Assembly: GCA_900317565.1 (NCBI GenBank)
Contig: ONHI01000001.1
Coordinates: 7,934 to 71,933 of the forward strand
DNA from: an uncultured Eubacteriales bacterium
GTDB lineage: Bacteria > Bacillota > Clostridia > Christensenellales > Aristaeellaceae
Direction: 5' to 3'
Length of the DNA: 64,000 nucleotides
Positions 1,306 through 9,778 of the stretch are shown here, in pieces. Made by a program: the position numbers and the translations under genes. Position 1 is the first letter of the stretch, and the number at the start of each line of letters is the position of its first letter. Under the pieces are notes generated by a model that saw only the letters and a list, made by a program, of their open reading frames with translations, searched no databases and was not told the DNA's origin.

Positions 1306-1447
1306 ATAGCAACCATCTGCGGGCATCTTTTCCGCCCTGCCGTTGCCTCGCTGCGGTCAACGATGCGCTGCATCGCCTCCCTCCGCTCGACTTAGGCAGA
1401 ACGAAAAATCTGCTCCGCATATGTTCACTTTTAGATTGAGCTTAGTA
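1289..1447. repeat. 159-bp element bounded by 18-nt inverted repeats (MITE-like or long hairpin)
   Basis: tactaatctcaatctaaa (1289-1306) versus the reverse complement of tttagattgagcttagta (1430-1447), 17/18 match. Fills the intergenic gap between the NUDIX and GNAT genes. Confidence 0.45.
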
Positions 1448-1469
1448 CGAGAACTGGAGGTGAAGGGGA

Positions 1470-2030
1470 GTGAACGCGCCCATCGACATCACCGGCGTCG
1501 TGCTGACCACGCCGCGGCTGGTGCTGCGCCCCTGGCGGGAATCGGATCTGAACGACCTCTTCGAGTACGCCCGGGTGGACGGCGTCGGCCAGATGGCGGG
1601 CTGGACGCCCCATAAGAGCATCGACGAATCCCGGGAGATCCTGGAGATGTTCATGCGGGAAAAGAGGACCTTCGCCCTGGAATTCGAGGGGAAGGTCGTG
1701 GGCTCGCTGGGAATTGAGACCTATGAGGAGGACCGCTATCCCGAATTGGACCTGCGGGACAGGCGGGGCCGGGAGATCGGCTACGTGCTGTCAAAGGACT
1801 ACTGGGGCCGCGGCCTGATGCCCGAGGCGGTCCGCGCCGTCATCCGCTGGCTGTTCGACGATGTGAAGCTGGATTTCATCATCGTGGCCCACTTCACCCG
1901 CAACGCCCGCTCCCGCCGGGTGATCGAAAAGTGCGGCTTCCATTATGTCAAGGCCATCCCCGCCCAAAGCCAATGCGGCAGGACGGAGGATTCGAGGGAG
2001 TATATACTGTACAAATCAGAGAGGGCGTAG
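1470..2030 (+). CDS. GNAT family N-acetyltransferase (RimJ/RimL-like)
   Basis: GTG start preceded by ggaggtgaagggga. TPRLVLRPWRESDLNDLFEY and the YWGRGLMPEAVRAVI acetyl-CoA motif. Confidence 0.85.
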   Translation: MNAPIDITGVVLTTPRLVLRPWRESDLNDLFEYARVDGVGQMAGWTPHKSIDESREILEMFMREKRTFALEFEGKVVGSLGIETYEEDRYPELDLRDRRGREIGYVLSKDYWGRGLMPEAVRAVIRWLFDDVKLDFIIVAHFTRNARSRRVIEKCGFHYVKAIPAQSQCGRTEDSREYILYKSERA

Positions 2031-2033
2031 CGT

Positions 2034-3137
2034 TCACTTCACCTGCCGTATGGCTTGAGCCTCGCGCTTGAAGCGTCCCGCTCGCATGGCGCGAAAGGTG
2101 CGATAGAAGGGCAGCAGGGGCAGCAGCAGCTTGTGTTTGTAGAACAGGGGATACATGCCGGCAAAGGCGGCGTAGCTCCTGTTCTTTTTGCTGACGGGCA
2201 CCAAAAAGCGGTCCAGCATGTAGCGGAGCTTGCCCCAACCGTGCTTGCGCATTCTGTTTTCTACTCTGTGGTTGATGGTGCCGTAGGTGCCGGAGGAGAG
2301 CATGTAATCCAGCATCTCCCCGTCCGCTTCGGAGAGCGCCTCGCCGCCCAGCAGCCGCAGCGCCAGCGCCCGGTTCTGCTGCTCAAATTCAGCGATCCCC
2401 AGCCTTTCCGCCTCGGCGGCGACATAGTTCATGTTCAGTGGCGCACGGTTCAGGAGGATATAGGTGTCCAACAGCGAGCGCAGACCGGTGCCGCCGCCGG
2501 AATAGTGCTTGTATTCGTGGGCCAGGAAATAGAGATAGAAGTCCTCCGGCGAGAAGCGCTTCTCGCAGCCCTCACCCAACAGGCGATCTTCAACGTTCCG
2601 GTAGTATTCATACAGCTTCTCGTCGTGGCTTGGCCCGAACAGCGCCGAATGCATCTCGAAATTGAGCACCGGGGGCTTGTGGTAGATGTCATGGTTGCTG
2701 GTGCCGAATCGCTCGGTGGTGAAGCCCAGCCCCTCCATGACGGCGCGCACGTCCCCAGCCCGGGTGGCGTCAAACAGTATGTCGTGGTCGGCGAATTCCC
2801 GCATGCCGTATTTCGGATAGTAGCTCTTCAGCACCGCGCCCTTCAGCGGCATATACCATATGCCCCGCGCCTCCAGCTGTGCCTTTATGTCGTTCCACGC
2901 CCTTTCAAACAGCGCGGTCTTGCGCATGGCTGCGGCGATGGCGGCGGCGGAACGGCTGTCACGGACGCCCGCGCTCTCCAGCGCATAGGCGATGGCCGCC
3001 CCGATCAGATGGCGGGCGGCGAGGGCATATACCGCGTCCAGATCCATGGTCCGGACCCTGTCGGCCTCCGGAACCGTACCGTTCACGGCGCAGGCTGCCA
3101 GATAGATCGCGTCCCGCGCGGTCCTGTTTTGCGTCAC
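2034..3137 (-). CDS. Nucleotidyltransferase family protein (PF14907/NTP_transf_5-like), last gene of the RiPP operon
   Basis: ORF 2034..3266 trimmed to GTG 3137, which has a ggag SD and sits 19 nt after the peptidase stop. MPLKGAVLKSYYPKYGMREFADHDILF and HSALFGP motifs. Confidence 0.75.
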   Translation of the reverse strand: MTQNRTARDAIYLAACAVNGTVPEADRVRTMDLDAVYALAARHLIGAAIAYALESAGVRDSRSAAAIAAAMRKTALFERAWNDIKAQLEARGIWYMPLKGAVLKSYYPKYGMREFADHDILFDATRAGDVRAVMEGLGFTTERFGTSNHDIYHKPPVLNFEMHSALFGPSHDEKLYEYYRNVEDRLLGEGCEKRFSPEDFYLYFLAHEYKHYSGGGTGLRSLLDTYILLNRAPLNMNYVAAEAERLGIAEFEQQNRALALRLLGGEALSEADGEMLDYMLSSGTYGTINHRVENRMRKHGWGKLRYMLDRFLVPVSKKNRSYAAFAGMYPLFYKHKLLLPLLPFYRTFRAMRAGRFKREAQAIRQVK

Positions 3138-3156
3138 GTTTGCTTCACTCCATAAG

Positions 3157-3540
3157 TCAGTGTCGGTTGCGCCTGATTCCCAGCCTTCTCGCCACCCGTC
3201 CCGCCAGGCGGCGGCAGCGGACGAGGCAAGCCCGCAGGGGATAGATCGCGTTCCAGAGGCGGGCATACCGCAGGTAATGGCGGTCCGACGCGCTGTACTG
3301 CCTGCCCTTGCGCACGAAGCCGGTCAGCACGCCGATCACGGCGCTGTCCGGCACGTGTTCGACGGCGTAGGTGTTGTCGCCGCGGATCAGATAGTGGTCG
3401 CCTTCCACGCCGATCACCCGGTGCAGCACGTAATCCTTGCCCCGCCGGTACAGCGCCACGTCATACTTTTTGAGACGTGAAACGGGGACCTGTATGATCA
3501 CCAGGTCCCGGTTCTGCCGCAGCATCGGCTCCATGCTCAC
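3157..3540 (-). CDS. S24/S26 superfamily peptidase (SipW/Sec11-like Ser-His type), start uncertain
   Basis: G-V-S-M-E-P nucleophile motif and VLHRVIGVEGD...IRGDN box. The homologous reading frame continues upstream to about 3603 without any ATG/GTG/TTG. Confidence 0.7.
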   Translation of the reverse strand: MSMEPMLRQNRDLVIIQVPVSRLKKYDVALYRRGKDYVLHRVIGVEGDHYLIRGDNTYAVEHVPDSAVIGVLTGFVRKGRQYSASDRHYLRYARLWNAIYPLRACLVRCRRLAGRVARRLGIRRNRH

Positions 3541-3601
3541 GCCCCGGGTCCTGTAGACGAGGCGTCCGTCCCGGGCGAGCAGCTCTTCAAAGGTCGTGGG
3601 C

Positions 3602-3862
3602 TTATTCCTCCAGCGCGTTGATCTTTCGCAGTGTGTCGATGATATTCGCCACGTCCCCGGCGATTTCCTGCCGTGGCGCGTCGTATTTTGCGGTCATGGC
3701 GTCCACGATGGCCGCCTGTGTGGTCTCCTGCTTCAGACAATCCACGATGAAGGCCGCGGTGCTGTTACTGCGCACGATGCCGCTGAACGCCTCCGCGCCC
3801 ACGGGCACCAGGAACTGGATGTCGTCGATGGTCTGGGTGATGAAATTGGATTTCAGTTTCAT
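3602..3862 (-). CDS. PqqD family peptide chaperone (RRE)
   Basis: 86 aa. FLVPVGAEAFSGIVRSNSTAAFIVDCL...AIVDAMTAKYDAPRQEIAGDVANIIDTL is typical PqqD architecture. Lies 11 nt after the rSAM gene. Confidence 0.85.
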   Translation of the reverse strand: MKLKSNFITQTIDDIQFLVPVGAEAFSGIVRSNSTAAFIVDCLKQETTQAAIVDAMTAKYDAPRQEIAGDVANIIDTLRKINALEE

Positions 3863-3873
3863 GATGTTTCTCC

Positions 3874-5193
3874 TTAGCAGATGGGGTTTTCCCCGTCGGT
3901 ATTTTCGCTTTCTTTCTTTTCCACCATGCGCTTGAGGGCGTCAATTGCCATCAGTTCATGCACCTGGCGGCAATGGGTGTCCTGTACGGGGCAGGTTGCG
4001 AAGCTGGTGCAGTCCGGCAGGAAGGGGCAGGCCTTGCACTTTTCCCGCGTCCTGTCCACGCGGCAGAATTCTTTTCTGGCGGCCGCGTCAGTGACGCCGT
4101 GCCAGATGTCCCCGAACCGGCTCTCCTCCGGGCAATGCTCGCAGGGGTACAGACTGCCCTCGGGTGTGATGACCACGCTGTCGCCATCGGCCATGCAGTG
4201 GTTGACGCGAAAACCAAGTCCCAGGCCCATAAAAGGCGCGCTCTTAAATCCCGCCTCCTCGATCAACCACCAGGCGTCCTTGATCTTTTCCCACATGGGA
4301 ACGTCGTTTTCACCCAGTCGCACGGCATTCAGCGGAGCCAGGTACACGCCCACCTTGTCCTTGTTCCGCACGTTCTCCCGCAGATCGGAAAGAAACCGGG
4401 GGATCCCGTCCCAGTTTTCCTCGTCCACATTGCAGCGAATGGTCACGTCAATGCCCGCCGCGCTCATGTCGCTGACCGCTTCCATGACATTGTGGTATTG
4501 ATCGTGGTCGGCGTAATAGCGCTTGCGGGAAATGTAATCCTGCTCCGCGCCGTCCATGGAGATCTGGATGTGGGAAAGGCGCCAATCGCCTGTCATCTTC
4601 GCCACGATCTCCGGGGTGATCAGGCTGCCGTTGGAGATCATGCTGGATTTATAATCGAGTCCTGCTTCCCGCAGCCCTTCGCAGACGCGGTCAATGGTCT
4701 TGACCCCCAGCAGCGGTTCCCCACCAAACCAACTCAGCTTCACCTTATCGCCTTCATGGGTATCGAGGATGTAGCGGATCACCTGCTCCACGATCTCCGG
4801 CGTCATGGTCACCTGCTTCATGCCCTCCTCGTAGCAGTAGACGCACCGGGCGTTGCAGCCGAAGGTGGGCAGGATGGTATAGCCCCGGATACCCTTTTTC
4901 CGGTTGTAGGCCCGCATGAGGGCGGAAATCTGGTTGTACCAGTTGCATTCGTCCTTGTTCTCAGGCACGAGGAATTGGGCTGCGATCAGATCGTCCCAGC
5001 CCTCTCCCGCCCTGGCCGATTCGGGCAGCACACCTTCGATGCACTGCTTGGTCAGATTGTGGAACACATACTGCTTCCCGCCGTGGTCGAAGGGCATAGC
5101 AAACTGGGAGGGAATGTAGTTGATATCAGAACGCGGACTGACAGGCGGGAGGAGCTTAGTCAGCGTCGCGTCGGGCTTGCGTATCTCGATCAT
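3874..5193 (-). CDS. Radical SAM/SPASM peptide-modifying enzyme
   Basis: CNARCVYC (CxxxCxxC) cluster, GGEPLL, and a C-terminal Cys-rich SPASM region (CMADG...YPCEHC...CKACPFLPDC...CPVQDTHC). About 100-aa N-terminal extension. Confidence 0.9.
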   Translation of the reverse strand: MIEIRKPDATLTKLLPPVSPRSDINYIPSQFAMPFDHGGKQYVFHNLTKQCIEGVLPESARAGEGWDDLIAAQFLVPENKDECNWYNQISALMRAYNRKKGIRGYTILPTFGCNARCVYCYEEGMKQVTMTPEIVEQVIRYILDTHEGDKVKLSWFGGEPLLGVKTIDRVCEGLREAGLDYKSSMISNGSLITPEIVAKMTGDWRLSHIQISMDGAEQDYISRKRYYADHDQYHNVMEAVSDMSAAGIDVTIRCNVDEENWDGIPRFLSDLRENVRNKDKVGVYLAPLNAVRLGENDVPMWEKIKDAWWLIEEAGFKSAPFMGLGLGFRVNHCMADGDSVVITPEGSLYPCEHCPEESRFGDIWHGVTDAAARKEFCRVDRTREKCKACPFLPDCTSFATCPVQDTHCRQVHELMAIDALKRMVEKKESENTDGENPIC

Positions 5194-5210
5194 TTCATAA
5201 CCTCAAAGGG

Positions 5211-5248
5211 GCATATGCAGCACACGGGATTGGCGTATGCTGCATATG
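5211..5248 (-). promoter_or_regulatory. Intercistronic stem-loop between the precursor genes and the rSAM gene
   Basis: gcatatgcagca (5211-5222) pairs with tgctgcatatg (5238-5248). 11-bp stem, 15-nt loop, no clear U-run. Confidence 0.5.
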
Positions 5249-5396
5249 TTTCGGACGGATCAATAGTTTTCGCTATCAATACGTACCAGTGCAAAAGTTG
5301 AAATTATCACCGCTTAAACAGATAACGGTATTCACCGGCGCCGAAAGAGCACCAAGGATAGCCCTATCTCTGAGCAGGAAAATGAGCCAGTATCCA

Positions 5397-5510
5397 TTAG
5401 CCAAACCAATCATCATATGCTGGTACATCAACAGGTGTACAGCTGGTCACGATCACATTCTCTCCGTTAAGTTCAATAACCTCAAGTTCAGGCTTCTCGT
5501 ACTTCTCCAT
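5397..5510 (-). CDS. RiPP precursor-like peptide A1 (37 aa), not in the ORF track
   Basis: Own translation: MEKYEKPELEVIELNGENVIVTSCTPVDVPAYDDWFG. GGAGGA SD 7 nt upstream of the ATG. TAA stop at 5397-5399. Confidence 0.8.
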   Translation of the reverse strand: MEKYEKPELEVIELNGENVIVTSCTPVDVPAYDDWFG

Positions 5511-5612
5511 GAGTATATCCTCCTTTCCCGCAAAATCATCTATGGCAATCTTGGCGCAAAGTAGCGTCAAGAATGTCCCTATTTGATTGAGAGGGAAAAG
5601 ATTTTTACTTCA

Positions 5613-5759
5613 TCAATCACCTTCACCACCCCACCATGGTACATCAACAGGTGTACAGCTGGTCACGATCACATTCTCCCCGCTCAATTCAACGATTTCC
5701 ATTTGGGGCTTAATGTACTTTACAGTACCCCCCCCGATTTGCGAACGCACGTTCTCCAT
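5613..5759 (-). CDS. RiPP precursor-like peptide A2 (48 aa), not in the ORF track
   Basis: Own translation: MENVRSQIGGGTVKYIKPQMEIVELSGENVIVTSCTPVDVPWWGGEGD. ATG lies 2 nt after the stop of the kinase-like gene. An internal Met (MEIVEL) is an alternative start. Confidence 0.75.
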   Translation of the reverse strand: MENVRSQIGGGTVKYIKPQMEIVELSGENVIVTSCTPVDVPWWGGEGD

Positions 5760-5761
5760 AT

Positions 5762-6508
5762 TCATTTCCTTTCTGCCCTTTCCGGGCTGTGTATTCCTTC
5801 CCAGGCTGTCAGAGCCGCTTCCGGCTCCATATTGCAGCCAAGGGTATAGAAATCAACTGCATCCAGCAGCTGTTTCTCCAATTCAATCACCCGCGCCATT
5901 GTCGCGGGATGCTTTGAGCCGAAGCACTGTTTCATCAGGACCGGAAAGGCATCCGCCCGGCTCATGTGCGCAATGTGGTTGCTTTCATCCCGGGTCAGGT
6001 TCACAATGGCTTTCAGCTTCGCGGAGGCGTTGCGGCTCAAATGGTGTTTCCCGTCCCAGGGCGTGCCGTACACCCTGATACCGGTTTCACCGATGCGCAG
6101 CATGGGCTTATCGTCGTTGATCATCCACACCCGATCCCCGAAGACCTCCCGCCAAAGCCGGGCGTGGGTGCTTTTGCCCGTGCCGGATTTAGCGGTGAAA
6201 ATGTACGCCTCCCCATCCATGCACAGGGCCGAGCCGTGCATCAGTAGCACGTTTTCCCAAACCAGCCTTTCCGCCAGCATAGAATGGATGGCATTGTTTT
6301 CCAGAAAGCCGTCCGTTCTCTTGTGCTTCGGAATGCCCTCCGCTTCGTCCGTCCGGTCGAAGTCCGCCTGCATTTGCGCCAGGTCCGCGTCGTCAGGCGC
6401 TATGGTGAAGGCTGGGTTCCCGTCCGAGGAGTAGTCCCGCAGGAAGACCTCGTTCTCCGGGAAGCGGCAGAGCACCTGTGCGGTCACGCCCGCAAGTTCA
6501 ACGATCAT
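5762..6508 (-). CDS. HPr kinase-like / ScmC-like P-loop protein
   Basis: LMHGSALCMDGEAYIFTAKSGTGKSTHARLW resembles the HprK C-terminal P-loop region. Start overlaps the TetR stop by 11 nt. Confidence 0.7.
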   Translation of the reverse strand: MIVELAGVTAQVLCRFPENEVFLRDYSSDGNPAFTIAPDDADLAQMQADFDRTDEAEGIPKHKRTDGFLENNAIHSMLAERLVWENVLLMHGSALCMDGEAYIFTAKSGTGKSTHARLWREVFGDRVWMINDDKPMLRIGETGIRVYGTPWDGKHHLSRNASAKLKAIVNLTRDESNHIAHMSRADAFPVLMKQCFGSKHPATMARVIELEKQLLDAVDFYTLGCNMEPEAALTAWEGIHSPERAERK

Positions 6509-7175
6509 TTCGGTTTTTCCTTTGCCCTTCCTGTCCGCAGTATTTGGCCAGCAGCAGCTCCTCCAGCATGATCAGCTCGCTCTCCGGGTCGGCGCCCTGC
6601 TCCGGAACGTATACCAAGCCGACGGCATAGCGCGTCACTGCCGCCAACATGATGTGGAACGAGCTGGATAACATAGCCGTCTCGGGAATGTCCGTGTTCA
6701 GCGTGCCGTCCCGCAGGCCGCGGACATACATCGCGTGGAACTGTGCAGAGAGCGCGTCTACCATGCGCATGTAAGGCTGCCGCTGTTCCGGACGACCCTG
6801 CTCGGTGCGCAGGAAGCTGTTGAAGTTGTAGTTGAAGCGCAGTATGTCGCTGTGGTTGCGGTAGAGGTCGAGGAAGGCGTCCAGGAAAAAGCGCAGGTAT
6901 TCCGCGGCGCTCAGCTGTTCAATGGCCTCCGCCGTCAGAAGCGTGTCGCGCGCCTCGATGTACTCCTCCCACTTCCACGCGCCGATGGCGACGACCAGGT
7001 CCAGCTTCGTGGCGTAGTAGCGATAGAGGGTTGCCCGCGCCACGCCGCCCTCCTGGGCCACCTCGGGCATGGTCACCGGCTCGATGCCCCGCTGGGAGAA
7101 CAGGCGAAAGCCCGCCTCCAGTATCCGGCGGCGCTTTTCCGCTCTCCACGGTGCTTCGGTTCGCACATCTTTCAT
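6498..7175 (-). CDS. TetR/AcrR family transcriptional regulator
   Basis: N-terminal HTH RRRILEAGFRLFSQRGIEPVTMPEVAQEGGVARATLYRYYATKLDLV. First gene of the operon. Confidence 0.9.
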   Translation of the reverse strand: MKDVRTEAPWRAEKRRRILEAGFRLFSQRGIEPVTMPEVAQEGGVARATLYRYYATKLDLVVAIGAWKWEEYIEARDTLLTAEAIEQLSAAEYLRFFLDAFLDLYRNHSDILRFNYNFNSFLRTEQGRPEQRQPYMRMVDALSAQFHAMYVRGLRDGTLNTDIPETAMLSSSFHIMLAAVTRYAVGLVYVPEQGADPESELIMLEELLLAKYCGQEGQRKNRNDR

Positions 7176-7210
7176 GTATTGGGTTCCTTTCCAGTATGGA
7201 ATGTGAAAAA

Positions 7211-7227
7211 TGAGACTTTACGTCTCA
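7211..7227 (-). promoter_or_regulatory. Candidate TetR operator
   Basis: Inverted repeat TGAGAC-n5-GTCTCA, located 2 nt downstream of the -10 box. Confidence 0.5.
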
Positions 7228-7228
7228 A

Positions 7229-7257
7229 ATTATATATCGGATTGCTATGCTTGTCAA
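7229..7257 (-). promoter_or_regulatory. Sigma-A type promoter of the RiPP operon
   Basis: On the minus strand: TTGACA (7257-7252), 17-nt spacer, TATAAT (7234-7229). About 50 nt upstream of the TetR ATG. Confidence 0.7.
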
Positions 7258-7285
7258 GGGAGAAATGTCATGTTTATCTAAAGAA

Positions 7286-7315
7286 CCGGGGGCCATCCGT
7301 GCGGATGGCCCCCGG
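7286..7315 (-). terminator. Intrinsic terminator downstream of the GH94 gene
   Basis: 13-bp GC stem ccgggggccatcc/ggatggcccccgg with a 4-nt loop, followed on the minus strand by ttcttt. Confidence 0.7.
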
Positions 7316-7423
7316 CGGGGAATGATGGGGGTTACTCCTTCCGGCCCTGCGGGCCACCTCCCTCATGGAGGGAGGCATATTGTAGTTCATATGGGACTTC
7401 CTTTATGGAGGTAAACCCATGCT

Positions 7424-9778
7424 TTACGCCAGCACGACCTCGACCTCGTGGGTGGCGGGGGCCTTGTCGGCGGGGATGACGTTGCCCTCGAGGGCCGCGC
7501 CGTCCACGGTCAGGCTCAGCTTGCCCTTCTCGTCGCCGGCCTTGTTGACGATGTGGATGTTGTAGGTGCTGCCGCGGAACTTGCGCACCAGGCGCAGGTC
7601 GGTCAGCTCCTTGGGCAGGCAGGGATCCAGCCTCAGGCCGTCATAATCCGGCTTGACGCCCAGTATGCCCTGGCTGATGGTGTAGAAGCTCCAGGCCGCG
7701 GTGCCGGTCAGCCAGCTGTTCTTGGCCTGGCCATAGTTGGGCGCGTAGGGACCGGCCACCATCTGGCTGTAGACATAGGGCTCGGTGTAGTGCAGCTGCT
7801 GGTCCTCGATCCAGGCGGGGCAGGTGCGGCGATAGATGTCGAAGGCCTTGCCACCGTGGCCCAGCCGGGCCTGCGCCAGCGCGATCCAGGGGTTGTTGTG
7901 GCAGAAGATGCCGCCGTTCTCCTTGTATCCCGGGGGATAGGAGCTGACCTCGCCCAGCTCCAGGTGATAGCGGGTGTAGGGCGGGGTCAGTATGGCGACG
8001 CCGTGCTCGCAGAGCAGGTGCTTCTCCACGCTGTCCATGGCCTTCTGGGCATAGCCCTCCTTCACGCCCACGCCGCCCATGACGACGAAGCCCTGGGGCT
8101 CGATGAAGATCTTGCCCTCCTCGCACTCGTGGCTGCCCACCTTGTTGCCGAAGGCGTCGTAGGCGCGCACGAACCATTCGCCGTCCCAGCCGTCGGTCAG
8201 TATGGCCTTCTCCATGGCGTCATACCAGCCGGACACCTGGTCGGCCTCCTCGTTCCAGCCGTACAGGCGGCACAGCGCCTCGTAATCCGGGCACACGCCG
8301 GTGAACATGCCGGCGATGAAGGTGGACTCCGCCGCGCCGGACTCGTTGTTCTCGGTGGTCTGGAAGCTCTCGCCGGGGGTGCTGGAGAAGCAGTTCAGGT
8401 TCAGGCAGTCGTTCCAGTCGGCGCGGCCGATCAGCGGCAGACCGTGGGGGCCGCGATGCTCCAGCGTGAAATGGATGCTGCGGCGCAGGTGCTCCATCAG
8501 CGGCTGGGCCAGCTTCTCGTCGTTGTCGAAGGGCACCATTTCCTTCAGGATGGACACGTCGCCGGTCTCCTTGATGTAGGCGGCCACGCCGAAGATCAGC
8601 CACAGCGGGTCGTCGTTGAAGCCGGAGCCGATGTCGTTGTTGCCCCGCTTGGTCAGCGGCTGGTACTGGTGATAGGCGCTGCCGTCCGGGAACTGGGTGG
8701 CGGCGATGTCCAGTATGCGCTCGCGGGCGCGGGCGGGGATCAGGTGCACGAAGCCCAGCAGGTCCTGGGTGGAATCGCGGAAGCCCATGCCGCGGCCGAT
8801 GCCGGATTCATAGTAGCTGGCGGAGCGGCTCATGTTGAAGGTGACCATGCACTGGTACTGGTTCCACAGGCCCGCCATGCGGTCCACGCGGACGTCGCCG
8901 CTGTCCACCTGGAAGGAGGAGAGCAGGTCCGCCCAGTAGGCGTTCAGCTCGGCAAAGGCGGCCTCAAACTGCGCGTCGGTCTTGAACTGATCCAGGATGG
9001 CGTAGGCCGGGGCCTTGTTGATCACGTTGGGCGCGGAGAACTTCTCCTCCTGGGGATTCTCGCAATAGGCCAGCACAAATATGAAGCTGGCGGTCTCGTC
9101 CGGGCCCAGGGTGCGCTTCAGGCAGTGGCTGGCGATGGGGGAGAAGCCGCTGGCGACGCTGTTTTTGCTGCGGTTCAGCGTAGGCACCTCCGGCTCGCCG
9201 AAGCCGTTGTAATAGCCCAGAAACGAGGCGCGGTCGGTGTCGAAGCCGTCGATGTCGGCGTTGACCGCGTACACCGCGAAGTGGTTGCGGCGCTCGCGGT
9301 ACTCGGTCTTGTGGTAGATGGCGCTGCCCTCGATCTCCACCTCGCCGGTGGAGAAGTTGCGCTGGAAGTTGGTGGACAGCTGCACGCGGGTCACCAGCGC
9401 GTTCACGCCCCGGGGCACGAAGGACAGCTGGCGCGCCTGCAGGCCGTCGCGCTCGCCGGTGATGCGGGTGTAGCCCAGGCCGTGGCGGCACTCATAGCGG
9501 TCCAGCGCCGCCTTCACCGGCATCCAGCCGGGAGTCCACAGGTTGCCGCCGTCGTTGATGTAGAAATACTGTCCGCCCGCGTCCGTGGGCACGTTGTTGT
9601 AGCGGTAGCGGGTGATGCGCAGCATGCGGGCGTCCTTGTAGAAGCTGTAGCCGCCGCCGGTGTTGCTCATCAGGGTGAAGAACGCCTCGCTGCCCAGATA
9701 GTTGATCCAGGGCGAGGGGGTGTCGGGGCGCGTGATGACGTATTCCCGCGCCAGGTCGTCGAAATGACCGTATTCCAT
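7424..9778 (-). CDS. GH94 glycoside phosphorylase (cellobiose/cellodextrin phosphorylase-like)
   Basis: Start at MEYGHFDD (ATG 9778, SD gaggagg). [35 protein letters not shown], and the catalytic-domain motif RADWNDCLN. Confidence 0.9.

Follow-up and report, generated by a model that had tools for sequence, protein, structure and literature searches.

A probable TetR-controlled operon for a ranthipeptide-like radical SAM peptide with lasso-style processing and tailoring genes

In the freyrasin/PapB ranthipeptides of Paenibacillus polymyxa, a radical SAM (rSAM)/SPASM maturase acts on a leader-dependent precursor with six Cys...Asp motifs, PapB joining Cys to the beta-carbon of Asp in C-X3-D and tolerating n = 0-6 as well as Glu (PMC9413430). 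CteB, of the SCIFF/thermocellin system of Clostridium thermocellum, is likewise a thioether-forming SPASM enzyme, and the antiSMASH ranthipeptide rule depends on the model TIGR03973 (PMC13289728). Lasso peptide clusters (paeninodin PadeK, ThcoK; pseudomycoidin PsmK/PsmN, B1/B2) employ an HPr-kinase-family peptide kinase that requires a His-Lys-Asp-Asp set (PMC9266682) and an 'uncharacterised nucleotidyltransferase' in which a DxD is essential, PsmN requiring D134/D136 to place hexose on phospho-Ser (PMC6993621). Finally, the SynChlorMet (SCM) cassette of Haft (ScmC, ScmD, ScmE, ScmF) contains a Pfam ScmC HPrK-like protein, a PqqD-family protein and two rSAM/SPASM enzymes.

The window analysed here, a stretch of 64,000 nucleotides from an uncultured Eubacteriales bacterium, carries eight genes, all on the minus strand, that we consider probable, on balance, to form a TetR-controlled operon for a leader-dependent, ranthipeptide-like rSAM RiPP with lasso-style processing and tailoring. 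The features are as follows:

7288..7313, minus strand: terminator-like hairpin, GGGGGCCATCC-GCAC-GGATGGCCCCC then GGTTCTTT, read directly from the sequence
7229..7257, minus strand: sigma-70-type promoter, TTGACA-17 nt-TATAAT, 12/12 consensus match
7211..7227, minus strand: palindrome TGAGAC-GTAAA-GTCTCA, directly downstream of the -10 box
6498..7175, minus strand: TetR-family regulator, 225 aa (PF00440, E 1.3e-14)
5762..6508, minus strand: HPrK/PEPCK-fold P-loop kinase-like protein, 248 aa (PF27840 ScmC, precomputed Pfam annotation)
5613..5765, minus strand: precursor A1, 50 aa from an ATG overlapping the kinase stop codon, 48 aa from ATG 5759
5397..5510, minus strand: precursor A2, 37 aa, leader MEKYEKPELEVIELNGENVIVTS, core CTPVDVPAYDDWFG
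5194..5396, minus strand: structured spacer of 203 nt between precursor gene and rSAM gene, including a 14-bp hairpin CAUAUGCAGCAUAC...GUGUGCUGCAUAUG
3874..5193, minus strand: radical SAM/SPASM peptide maturase, 439 aa (Radical_SAM, Fer4_12 and SPASM domains)
3602..3862, minus strand: stand-alone PqqD-family RiPP recognition element (RRE), 86 aa (PF05402, E 9.8e-14)
3157..3597, minus strand: S24/S26 (signal-peptidase/LexA-fold) Ser/His peptidase, 146 aa from ACG 3597-3595, 127 aa from GTG 3540
2034..3137, minus strand: PF14907 (NTP_transf_5) nucleotidyltransferase-fold protein, 367 aa (PF14907, E 1.8e-39)

The rSAM peptide cluster is real and intact. Its eight co-directional genes lie where the preliminary description had placed them, and the identities proposed there for the TetR, kinase-like, rSAM, PqqD, peptidase and PF14907 proteins are borne out by domain searches and AF2 fold matches. 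The hairpin at 7288..7313, absent from the list of the automated scan, closes the upstream GH94 gene; it is where the operon is bounded on its upstream side. The single consensus promoter proposed earlier also stands: as a consensus match only, 7229..7257 is the sole perfect one within 1400-7500. The adjoining palindrome is a candidate TetR operator, given its position and the TetR gene coming first in the operon, and TetR would repress the operon through it; since a TetR gene neighbours the cassette in only two to three related loci, it is a lineage-specific regulator. The packing into overlaps or very short gaps holds for most of the operon (the kinase gene overlaps the TetR gene by 11 nt) but not around the second peptide, where the gaps amount to 102 nt (pepA1-pepA2) and 203 nt (pepA2-rSAM). 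The latter spacer is predicted to fold with an MFE of -70.5 kcal/mol versus -53.1 +/- 4.2 for shuffles (z -4.1; 0/200 as stable), matches no Rfam family and may serve as an attenuator or stabiliser. An exporter gene is lacking from the operon in the window, which counts against the preferred reading.

The two short peptides, rightly described as paralogous, are 69% identical over 35 aa, each consisting of a conserved leader of ~23 residues (…KYEKPxMEVIELxxxxVIVTS) and a 14-residue core. The leader of A1 ends in ...VKYIKPQMEIVELSGENVIVTS and is followed by the core CTPVDVPWWGGEGD; A1 corresponds to the 48-aa gene called on public contigs. A2, with the RBS AAAGGAGG 8 nt upstream of its start, was missed by public gene callers. 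A leader HMM retrieved both (A2, E 3.7e-15; A1, E 2.5e-13), and the match is not due to chance because the next-best ORF in the 64 kb window reached only E 1.3. No NCBIfam model covers the precursors: the leader is of a different family from that of freyrasin, and, unlike SCIFF, neither peptide has a TIGR03973-type match, so that the family would escape the ranthipeptide label of antiSMASH. Both cores read C-T-P-V-D, that is, the C-X3-D motif of PapB with freyrasin-type spacing, although with one motif per core against six in freyrasin.

Conserved short ORFs are kept in homologous loci. Across 78 related genome loci, mostly from rumen Clostridia and with rSAM identities of 35-100%, 98 short ORFs located beside the rSAM gene share one common leader, M-[EK]-K-Y-E-K-P-x-M-E-V-I-E-L-x-x-D-V-I-x-T-S, ahead of hypervariable cores in which G, D, C, P and T are abundant. 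Within the precursors, Tyr10 is conserved in 97/98, Ser28 in 78/98 and the first core Cys in 78/98. The Ser at the leader end is also kept in clades without kinase and peptidase nearby, which speaks against the preferred reading.

The accessory genes invite comparison with the lasso systems, with which the family shares a PqqD-type RRE, a leader protease and, in some loci, an ABC exporter. The operon in the window, as noted before, has neither a lasso cyclase nor a B2 transglutaminase-type protease; their slots are taken by a single rSAM and a Ser/His S26 peptidase, respectively. The AF2 model of the kinase-like protein (pLDDT 91.9; P-loop AKSGTGKST) retrieved only ATP-PEPCK and HPrK/P in a Foldseek search against the PDB. 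Whereas Pfam assigns the protein to ScmC, unlike the lasso kinases, no ScmC-type NCBIfam model matches it at E <= 0.01, and the HprK-related TIGR04352 does so only at E 0.003. The invariant residues comprise H91, the P-loop S108-G-T-G-K112-S-T and D132-D133, so that the required His-Lys-Asp-Asp set of the lasso kinases is represented by H91, K112, D132 and D133, on which we base the analogy. In the PF14907 protein, K100-G101, D118-x-D120 and D151 are invariant among 16 homologues, and D118-x-D120 is the counterpart of the pair required in PsmN. The start of its gene is most likely GTG 3137 (GGAG 10 nt upstream), because the same call is made on public contigs and homology begins there; ATG 3266 of the longest ORF (2034-3266) is probably not the start. 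The three accessory enzymes (kinase, peptidase and nucleotidyltransferase) keep intact catalytic motifs. The SynChlorMet cassette differs in its rSAM enzymes (ScmE 45 bits versus a cut-off of 400, with ScmF outside the top matches), occurs in other taxa, and lacks the S26 peptidase and PF14907 protein that the window adds.

In most related loci, 5-30 nt separate the rSAM gene from the PqqD gene downstream of it, and the two genes are adjacent in 58/79. Full flanks are available for 33 loci, of which 17 carry the kinase, 19 the peptidase and 12 the nucleotidyltransferase, none of these without PqqD. Moreover, Sarcina sp. DSM 11001 has a detached kinase-PqqD-peptidase operon, and a Eubacteriaceae MAG has one that also includes an ABC exporter; neither has an rSAM or a precursor within 7 kb, so this trio looks like a separable leader-directed module. 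We infer the chemistry of cross-linking and tailoring. PqqD would bind the conserved leader and present it to the accessory enzymes, the kinase would phosphorylate the precursor on Ser or Thr, and the PF14907 enzyme would then attach a hexose or nucleotide, on the model of PsmK and PsmN; the module, with or without the ABC exporter, could act in trans on any precursor with this leader.

The same detached operons also fit an explanation that we regard as possible but distinctly less probable, namely that the kinase-like and PF14907 proteins leave the final peptide undecorated. The kinase-like protein, PqqD and peptidase (with or without ABC) would then be a machine for leader processing and export, the P-loop protein using ATP to drive unfolding or gating, or else licensing cleavage through a transient phosphorylation, and the nucleotidyltransferase would act on another substrate, for instance in self-resistance or on a cell-surface molecule. 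It must indeed be the conserved leader, and not the hypervariable cores, that the accessory enzymes recognise; the precursors have no conserved C-terminal Ser, the target of the lasso kinases, which also counts against kinase tailoring by analogy; and the nucleotidyltransferase is associated with the peptidase (p 0.027) more strongly than with the kinase (p 0.17, not significant), again to the detriment of the preferred reading, as is the occurrence of the kinase-like gene alone in one locus (L088). Decoration of the peptide is nevertheless favoured by the invariance of the complete phosphotransfer set, by the same pair of enzyme types decorating the product in lasso clusters, and by the presence, in different loci, of the kinase without the peptidase and the peptidase without the kinase.

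The motif CNARCVYC of the rSAM (residues 113-120) and its Cys-rich C-terminus, both pointed out previously, contain invariant Cys: C113-x3-C117-x2-C120 and seven C-terminal residues (C333, C351, C386, C389, C395, C401 and C408). The highest-scoring NCBIfam models are TIGR04463 (127 bits), Clo7bot (107), geopeptide (107), PapB (102) and CefB (101), all scores being far under the curated cut-offs (102 versus 340 for PapB; 127 versus 525 for TIGR04463), as is that of the SCIFF maturase model (55 versus 425); no curated model covers any clade of this enzyme. The closest PDB structure is the thioether synthase CteB (5WGG, E 9e-11, residues 95-391), which likewise comes from the Clostridia. The nearest relatives are thioether (ranthipeptide-type) maturases, represented by TIGR04463, PapB and CteB. 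We know of no discrete PqqD, kinase, S26 peptidase or nucleotidyltransferase, all found in the window, from the pap cluster. The earlier view that the locus maps to no characterised RiPP class holds for the family and its gene combination, whereas in its scaffold (leader, core with Cys and Asp, enzyme of CteB/PapB-like type) the locus is most similar to the known ranthipeptide class. In the preferred reading, the rSAM would abstract a hydrogen beside the Asp carboxylate and bond this site to the thiol of core Cys1, yielding a single small Cys1-Asp5 thioether ring of the ranthipeptide type. The N-terminal domain of the rSAM has no detectable similarity to PqqD, a point against the preferred reading where recognition of the leader for this step is concerned.

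A different rSAM chemistry within the same cluster and leader logic, either sactionine (Cys S to alpha-carbon) or a C-C/aryl cross-link through the Trp/aromatic tail (streptide-, darobactin- or cyclophane-like), is rather unlikely. The cores themselves argue for Cys-to-acidic ring formation: Cys is present in 91/96, D/E occurs at Cys+3 in 83 cases versus 38 expected over all cores (z 9.0), and C-x-x-[DE] is found in 44/91 cores versus 31.8 +/- 4.2 in shuffles (0/500 reach 44), with no enrichment in the reverse orientation. The tolerance of PapB for other spacings and Glu matches this family-wide enrichment. The fit is imperfect, however, given that the enrichment is at Cys+3 and the motif in the window, retained in its clade as C-T-P-x-D, is at Cys+4, and that only 110/231 Cys have D/E at +3 or +4. 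Furthermore, three of the five Cys-less cores (L005, GSSSDGPSVPFWGGEGG; L008, QDPFYPSAEGEEGWDDDN; L023, QIIGSQGEGVGDDWGD) belong to loci with an rSAM sharing 71-84% identity with that of the window, and they retain the Trp/acidic tail, which would allow a different cross-link there; the tail P-[WF]-W-G-G-E-G-[GD] is kept in L001, L005, L010, L011 and L015, and models of DynA (67 bits), AmcB (50) and the sactipeptide enzyme StsB (38) match the rSAM as well. Against this stand the thioether-type top scores, CteB as the nearest structure, the first core Cys kept in most precursors and the directional spacing.

The peptidase resembles the S26B signal peptidases with a Ser-His pair (ER/archaeal/SipW-type) in the SM-x-P-x-L serine box, H-R-[VI] in place of K-R and the G-D-N box, with S21 (SMEP), H59-R60 (LHRV) and G73-D74-N75 invariant and H59 opposite the catalytic Lys in the alignment to signal peptidase 4NV4. 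Its HMM matches are weak, the best in NCBIfam being an archaeal-type signal peptidase I model (26.5 versus a cut-off of 51.85), but the AF2 model (pLDDT 83.7) found SpsB, SipA, LexA, UmuD' and lambda cI as sole PDB fold matches, and homologues of 145-158 aa are named 'S24/S26 family peptidase' at NCBI. Unlike signal peptidases, this protein of ~146 aa has no N-terminal membrane anchor, ends in a long basic C-terminal helix, is encoded directly after PqqD and presumably cleaves a cytoplasmic RiPP leader rather than a Sec signal peptide. Its ORF abuts the PqqD stop codon in 22/34 pairs, which indicates that the two are translationally coupled in most loci. The peptidase would cut off the leader after V-T-S, a site that conforms to the rule of small residues at -1 and -3 known from signal peptidases.

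Conservation at the N-terminus of the peptidase begins 19 codons before the listed ORF (3157-3540), at 3597, where the window has no canonical start codon, a point against the preferred reading: codon 3597-3595 is ACG, and loci L006, L015, L041 and L042 carry ATG before TFEE. It is conceivable, albeit unlikely, that the cluster is partly decayed in this genome, ATG-to-ACG leading to poor translation or to a truncated, misfolded peptidase, with the leader removed by another protease or the pathway inactive. The 19 missing residues are conserved across the family and gene callers yield products of 122 or 127 aa; yet every other gene is undamaged and has a good RBS, no stop codon interrupts the upstream frame, and the ACG has a GGAGGA 8 nt ahead of it. 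Identical sequence occurs on four independent metagenome contigs and the 127-aa form comprises 26 member sequences, suggesting that the ACG variant is maintained.

It is highly improbable that this is not a RiPP cluster, with an anSME-like, protein- or cofactor-modifying rSAM and spurious short ORFs, because, although anSME models match the rSAM core (62 bits; PDB 4K37, E 9e-7), peptide maturase models (101-127 bits) score about twice as high, and the conserved leader-bearing ORFs beside the rSAM and the frequent adjacency of PqqD already contradict it. The rSAM falls with neither anSME nor another non-peptide enzyme, and both attempts at refutation by computation, on rSAM placement and short-ORF conservation, came out in favour of the preliminary description, which is supported as a whole.

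HPr kinases and SPASM enzymes are not linked in any searchable paper. The cluster in the window is no isolated case: it belongs to a large, uncharacterised family of modular make-up in rumen Clostridia, and dozens of genomes of these bacteria contain the same building blocks. In the window, a thioether-type rSAM is paired with a kinase, a protein that binds peptides, a protease resembling signal peptidases and a nucleotidyltransferase, a set that has so far been described for lasso peptides only.

The genes between 2034 and 7257 on the minus strand form a single compact transcription unit, in which A1 and A2 denote two paralogous precursor peptides, each with a leader and a 14-residue core:

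7313-7281: terminator-like GC-rich hairpin with a T-rich stretch, closing the upstream GH94 gene
7257..7229, minus strand: promoter TTGACA-17-TATAAT, a 12/12 consensus match and the sole such match in the region
7227-7211: 6+6 palindrome TGAGAC-GTAAA-GTCTCA (TGAGACGTAAAGTCTCA) directly after the promoter, candidate TetR operator
6498-7175, minus strand: TetR, first gene, domain assignment firm
5762-6508, minus strand: P-loop kinase-like protein, 248 aa, with an 11-nt overlap with TetR
5613-5765, minus strand: peptide A1, its ATG overlapping the stop codon of the kinase-like gene
5397-5510, minus strand: peptide A2, with ribosome-binding site AAAGGAGG
3874-5193, minus strand: radical SAM/SPASM enzyme (rSAM), 439 aa, domain assignment firm
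3602-3862, minus strand: PqqD protein, 86 aa, domain assignment firm
between the PqqD and PF14907 genes, minus strand: S24/S26-type peptidase
ending at 2034, minus strand: PF14907 nucleotidyltransferase-fold protein, domain assignment firm

The flanking genes, encoding a GNAT acetyltransferase, a NUDIX protein and a CBM9-like protein on one side and the GH94 phosphorylase and a large LRR surface protein on the other, have housekeeping or surface functions and are unrelated to the cluster; each cluster gene is present just once in the 64 kb window, and A1 and A2 are its only precursors. Under a looser criterion, the region contains 3 promoter-like sites against 2.9 expected by chance. Because TetR is the first gene and the palindrome lies over the transcription start region, the simplest reading would be autoregulated repression by TetR, a regulator present in only 2-3 related loci. 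The 203 nt separating A2 from the rSAM gene (5194-5396, minus strand) contain a 14-bp hairpin without a U-tract and fold far better than shuffled sequences (z -4.1); an Rfam search of the operon, spacer included, detected no known RNA family. Hairpins located after precursor genes in other RiPP operons set the precursor-to-enzyme ratio, and by analogy the structured spacer may do the same here. The operon itself lacks an exporter gene; among the related loci, ABC_membrane+ABC_tran exporters are encoded by ten genes across nine loci.

The preliminary description presented the locus as an unclassified radical SAM/SPASM RiPP operon with kinase-like and nucleotidyltransferase genes, and it is indeed a real operon of this kind, as indicated by the motifs of the enzyme, its SPASM Cys residues and 98 leader-bearing precursors. 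The CX3CX2C motif (C113-N-A-R-C117-V-Y-C120; PF04055, E 1.4e-16) is invariant among 16 homologues, and the seven SPASM Cys (C333-x12-G-x4-C351, C386-x2-C389-x5-C395-x5-C401...C408) are invariant as well, so that together with an adjoining precursor of leader and variable core the full set of features of a radical SAM/SPASM RiPP maturase is present. Model searches for SPASM, PqqD and PF14907 all yielded matches above cut-off (PF13186, 22.7 bits vs 21.5; PF05402, 51.9 vs 23.4; PF14907, 136 vs 31.2). The top family matches of the rSAM are the RiPP maturases TIGR04463, Clo7bot, geopeptide, PapB and CefB (100-127 bits), and the nearest solved structure is that of the thioether synthase CteB; similarity to PapB and CteB is remote. 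Curated equivalog cut-offs were missed (PapB NF047865, 102 vs 340; SCIFF TIGR03974, 55 vs 425; TIGR04463, 127 vs 525), and four other clades of the rSAM family also fall below the curated NCBIfam cut-offs. Profile-profile comparison of the N-terminal 105 residues of the rSAM with the PqqD family revealed no relationship (probability 10%, with only a 10-column FLVP match).

An rSAM alignment search limited to one genome per species identified 78 related loci, almost all in MAGs of rumen or gut Clostridia, with a single cultured representative, Sarcina sp. DSM 11001; at E <= 1e-20, the enzyme has >1000 protein clusters (90% clustering). Neighbour genes were scored by tblastn, as greedy six-frame ORF clustering picked up antisense shadow ORFs, the DNA being GC-rich. 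The cluster is one member of a large family in rumen Clostridia that lacks curation, and not a categorically new system.

An iterated profile search of ORFs near the related rSAM genes, seeded with the two window peptides, detected 98 short ORFs adjoining rSAM genes in the 78 loci, which agrees with the idea that short ORFs are conserved at homologous loci. These peptides share the leader M-[EK]-K-Y-E-K-P-x-M-E-V-I-E-L-x-x-D-V-I-[LT]-T-S, in which Tyr is conserved in 97/98, Pro in 80/98 and the final Ser in 78/98, and the same leader accompanies rSAM enzymes with as little as 35% identity. The cores (9-57 residues) are hypervariable, with a high content of Gly, Asp, Cys, Pro and Thr; a Cys stands one or two residues past the final leader Ser in 78/98 precursors, and the C-terminal residue, D or G in the window cores, is variable family-wide. 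A2 is MEKYEKPELEVIELNGENVIVTSCTPVDVPAYDDWFG (computed monoisotopic mass 4227.991); public gene calls miss its gene and instead place a 60-aa antisense ORF there (L003:4272-4454). In a distant Ruminococcus/Clostridiales clade, the same leader precedes Thr/Pro-rich cores: rSAM genes and precursor ORFs occur in tandem arrays, four of each at L080:1000-7269 (Ruminococcus) and two of each at L078:4364-7299, and neither locus has a PqqD, kinase or peptidase gene nearby.

Among 96 distinct cores, D or E occurs at Cys+3 in 83 cases against 38 expected (z 9.0). The C-x-x-[DE] pattern is found in 44/91 Cys-containing cores vs 31.8 +/- 4.2 in shuffles, a value reached in 0/500 shuffles, and the reverse spacing, with the acidic residue before Cys, is not enriched, so that the signal is directional. 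The window cores contain C-T-P-V-D, and C-T-P-x-D, a form of C-X3-D, is retained in the window clade; the cores thus have a Cys donor and an acidic acceptor at a recurring spacing, as in ranthipeptides. Given this conserved C-X3-D and the chemistry of PapB, which joins Cys to the beta-carbon of Asp in C-X3-D motifs and also accepts Glu and other spacings (PMC9413430), we infer by analogy that each 14-residue window core would carry one Cys1-Asp5 thioether ring. An acidic residue is available at +3 or +4 for only 110/231 Cys, and Cys is absent from 5/96 cores, three of these in loci with an rSAM 71-84% identical to that of the window. The thioether model does not explain the Cys-less cores, and a Trp-centred cross-link in place of the thioether is a live rival: the Cys-less cores at L005:259-477, L008:3202-3339 and L023:2841-2975 follow a normal leader and keep a Trp/acidic Gly-rich tail resembling the ...PWWGGEGD of the window.

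The view that this combination of genes matches no characterised RiPP class also stands: the rSAM and the peptides score below every curated NCBIfam cut-off, and we found no paper describing this cassette. At E <= 0.01, NCBIfam returned no match for either window peptide or for the precursors of three relatives, and hence none to the SCIFF precursor model TIGR03973 (six Cys in 45 residues). SynChlorMet cassettes combine the paired rSAM/SPASM enzymes ScmE and ScmF with ScmC and ScmD, whereas the window operon has a single rSAM, scoring 45 bits vs the ScmE cut-off of 400; its kinase-like protein is similar to ScmC only at the level of the Pfam family (PF27840). The accessory arrangement of the family follows the logistics of lasso peptides (RRE B1, protease B2, kinase K, nucleotidyltransferase N, exporter D), but the slot of the lasso cysteine protease is taken here by a Ser/His S26 peptidase and that of the cyclase by the rSAM. 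A lasso cluster can be rejected because domain searches of the eight products detected no Asn-synthetase-like cyclase and no transglutaminase-like B2 protease, confirming these absences, as well as the single rSAM, noted in the preliminary description. The rSAM likewise lies outside anSME, an anSME-like reading being rejected since RiPP maturase models score about twice as high as that of the anaerobic sulfatase maturase. The most fitting description of the cluster is a ranthipeptide-like radical-SAM RiPP system, with predicted chemistry throughout, that carries a lasso-style, RRE-centred kinase/peptidase/nucleotidyltransferase module.

The kinase-like protein has >7700 relatives (E <= 1e-5, 90% clustering). 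It gave no match in a local Pfam library that does not contain PF27840, apart from a PEPCK_ATP trace at E <= 10, and in NCBIfam only a P-loop-sized match to HprK-related kinase A (E 0.003); public precomputed annotation assigns it, together with thousands of relatives, to PF27840 'ScmC'. Sequence searches against PDB retrieved nothing for the kinase-like or the PF14907 protein, the kinase fold search alone being informative: an AlphaFold2 model (25 homologues; pLDDT 91.9, pTM 0.87) matched significantly only ATP-dependent PEP carboxykinases and HPr kinase/phosphorylases. The invariant His91, P-loop Lys112 and Asp132-Asp133 are spaced as His-21-Lys-20-AspAsp, which we take to mirror closely the spacing in L. 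casei HPrK/P. The same His-Lys-Asp-Asp set is essential in lasso-peptide kinases (PMC9266682). The protein accordingly possesses both the HPrK/PEPCK fold and the His/Lys/Asp/Asp residues of a lasso-type tailoring kinase; the conserved C-terminal Ser of lasso-kinase substrates is absent from the precursors. A 62%-identical kinase-like gene (L088:7001-7729) is solitary: its neighbours are unrelated metabolic genes, and PqqD, peptidase, rSAM and precursor genes are all absent within 7 kb of it.

In the PF14907 protein, most likely translated from GTG 3137 (367 aa) and not from ATG 3266, G101, D118-x-D120 and D151 are invariant among 16 homologues and make up the G-[SA]...D-x-D...D motif of the Pol-beta nucleotidyltransferase fold. 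In the case of pseudomycoidin, PsmK (poly)phosphorylates the precursor, and PsmN, an 'uncharacterised nucleotidyltransferase' with essential D134/D136, is needed for attachment of a hexose to the phosphate (PMC6993621). Going by the description of PsmN, the PF14907 protein may resemble it in its D118-x-D120. Against simple transfer of the PsmK/PsmN mechanism count the lack of a conserved C-terminal Ser, the non-significant association of the kinase-like and nucleotidyltransferase genes, and the sometimes solitary kinase-like gene.

Signal-peptidase HMMs matched the peptidase only below their cut-offs. In an alignment with the B. anthracis signal peptidase (4NV4), its Ser lies in the SM-x-P-x-L box and His59 aligns with the catalytic Lys; Ser21, His59-Arg60 and Gly-Asp-Asn73-75 do not vary across 26 sequences. 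Foldseek comparison of an AF2 model (pLDDT 83.7; only 54 around residues 21-30, near the nucleophile) returned SpsB, SipA, LexA, UmuD' and lambda cI only, all with probability 1.00. These fold matches, the invariant Ser/His and the signal peptidase alignment identify the protein as a predicted small, anchor-less Ser/His member of clan SF (S24/S26), with >3000 relatives (E <= 1e-5, 90% clustering). SipW, Sec11 and archaeal signal peptidases catalyse with a Ser/His pair. Because the leader end V-T-S fits the preference of signal peptidases for small residues at -1/-3 of the cleavage site, leader cleavage is provisionally placed between Ser23 and Cys24 of A2. In 35 loci, peptidase homology extends 19-22 codons upstream of the listed GTG at 3540, through the conserved M-x-x-F-E-E-L-L-A-R-D-G-x-L-V-Y-K-T-R-G. 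The window has ACG (3597-3595, minus strand) at the position of the homologues' ATG, with the frame open, 19 conserved codons kept and GGAGGA 8 nt before it, a variant common to all four metagenome contigs with this exact cluster; public gene calls give truncated products of 122 or 127 aa, whose N-terminus falls at the catalytic Ser or beyond it. Translation either starts at the ACG or yields a truncated enzyme.

The PqqD protein has the character of a stand-alone RRE, with leader binding only predicted, and its gene adjoins the rSAM in 58/79 loci. In the 33 loci with full flanks and rSAM identity >= 42%, PqqD is encoded in 31/33, the peptidase in 19/33, the kinase-like protein in 17/33 and PF14907 in 12/33. 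The latter three never occur without PqqD in these 33 loci; since PqqD is nearly universal, this co-occurrence is on its own not statistically informative. Pairwise associations of the kinase-like (K), S26 peptidase (S) and PF14907 nucleotidyltransferase (N) genes are weak (K-N, p 0.17; K-S, p 0.11; S-N, p 0.027), and no precursor feature among leader-end residues, C-terminus and Ser/Thr apparently tracks their presence. In 22/34 PqqD-peptidase pairs, the start of the peptidase ORF abuts or overlaps the PqqD stop codon. Furthermore, Sarcina sp. DSM 11001 carries an isolated three-gene operon for the kinase-like protein, PqqD and the peptidase (L084:7001-8611, FNFZ01000006), and neither an rSAM nor a precursor gene is found within 7 kb of it; the two rSAM+precursor loci of this strain (L022, L064), with four predicted cores between them, lie on other contigs without accessory genes. 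The Eubacteriaceae MAG GCA_017536805.1 (L086:7001-10147) has an isolated four-gene operon of kinase, PqqD, peptidase and ABC exporter, and here too rSAM and precursor genes are absent within 7 kb. Accessory genes thus lie apart from rSAM and precursors in two genomes, which makes the set a separable unit; the conserved leader, not the variable cores, must be what it reads, and it can presumably act in trans.

Seven cassettes (L040, L043, L049, L052, L057, L058 and L062) encode an STT3/PglB/AglB-type oligosaccharyltransferase of ~790-870 aa in which the WWD[DY]G motif is intact (for example, L058:7823-10258 and L040:7645-10312), usually right after the precursor gene and near the ABC exporter. 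Core N-x-S/T sequons are present in 6/6 precursors of the STT3 loci vs 13/92 elsewhere (Fisher p 2.6e-5). The STT3-type gene and the sequons in all 6 precursors suggest N-glycosylated radical-SAM peptides in Clostridia. At L009:7342-8307, a family-2 glycosyltransferase gene (PF00535, E 3e-41) is located between the rSAM and precursor genes, another pointer to recurrent glycosylation among these peptides.

A tentative reading, which we regard as somewhat unlikely, is that the kinase-like protein, PqqD and S26 peptidase, with the ABC exporter and PF14907 as additions, constitute an unrecognised portable, leader-directed processing/tailoring module that works partly in trans and serves rumen-wide radical-SAM peptides with the KYEKP...TS leader; the window product would then be a phospho- and/or glyco-/nucleotidyl-decorated mini-thioether peptide, and sister clusters would add STT3-type N-glycosylation. 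If true, this would provide the first RRE-guided leader protease of the Ser/His signal-peptidase type and a PEPCK/HPrK-fold peptide kinase outside lasso peptides.

The family offers many natural substrates for a thioether-forming enzyme class that already serves to macrocyclise peptides. Its leader peptidase may represent a new type, cutting at a simple V/T-x-S site, and the family also makes a test case for the lasso kinase/nucleotidyltransferase tailoring pair as a general, RRE-driven tool. RiPP clusters whose function is unknown abound in rumen Clostridia. Of ranthipeptides, standard mining rules pick out the SCIFF type alone (PMC13289728), and the KYEKP-leader family consequently goes unseen. 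The cultured host, Sarcina sp. DSM 11001, is a place to look for products. These small acidic, Trp-rich peptides may be signals, not antibiotics, and such a role, if true, would bear on communication within the rumen microbiome.
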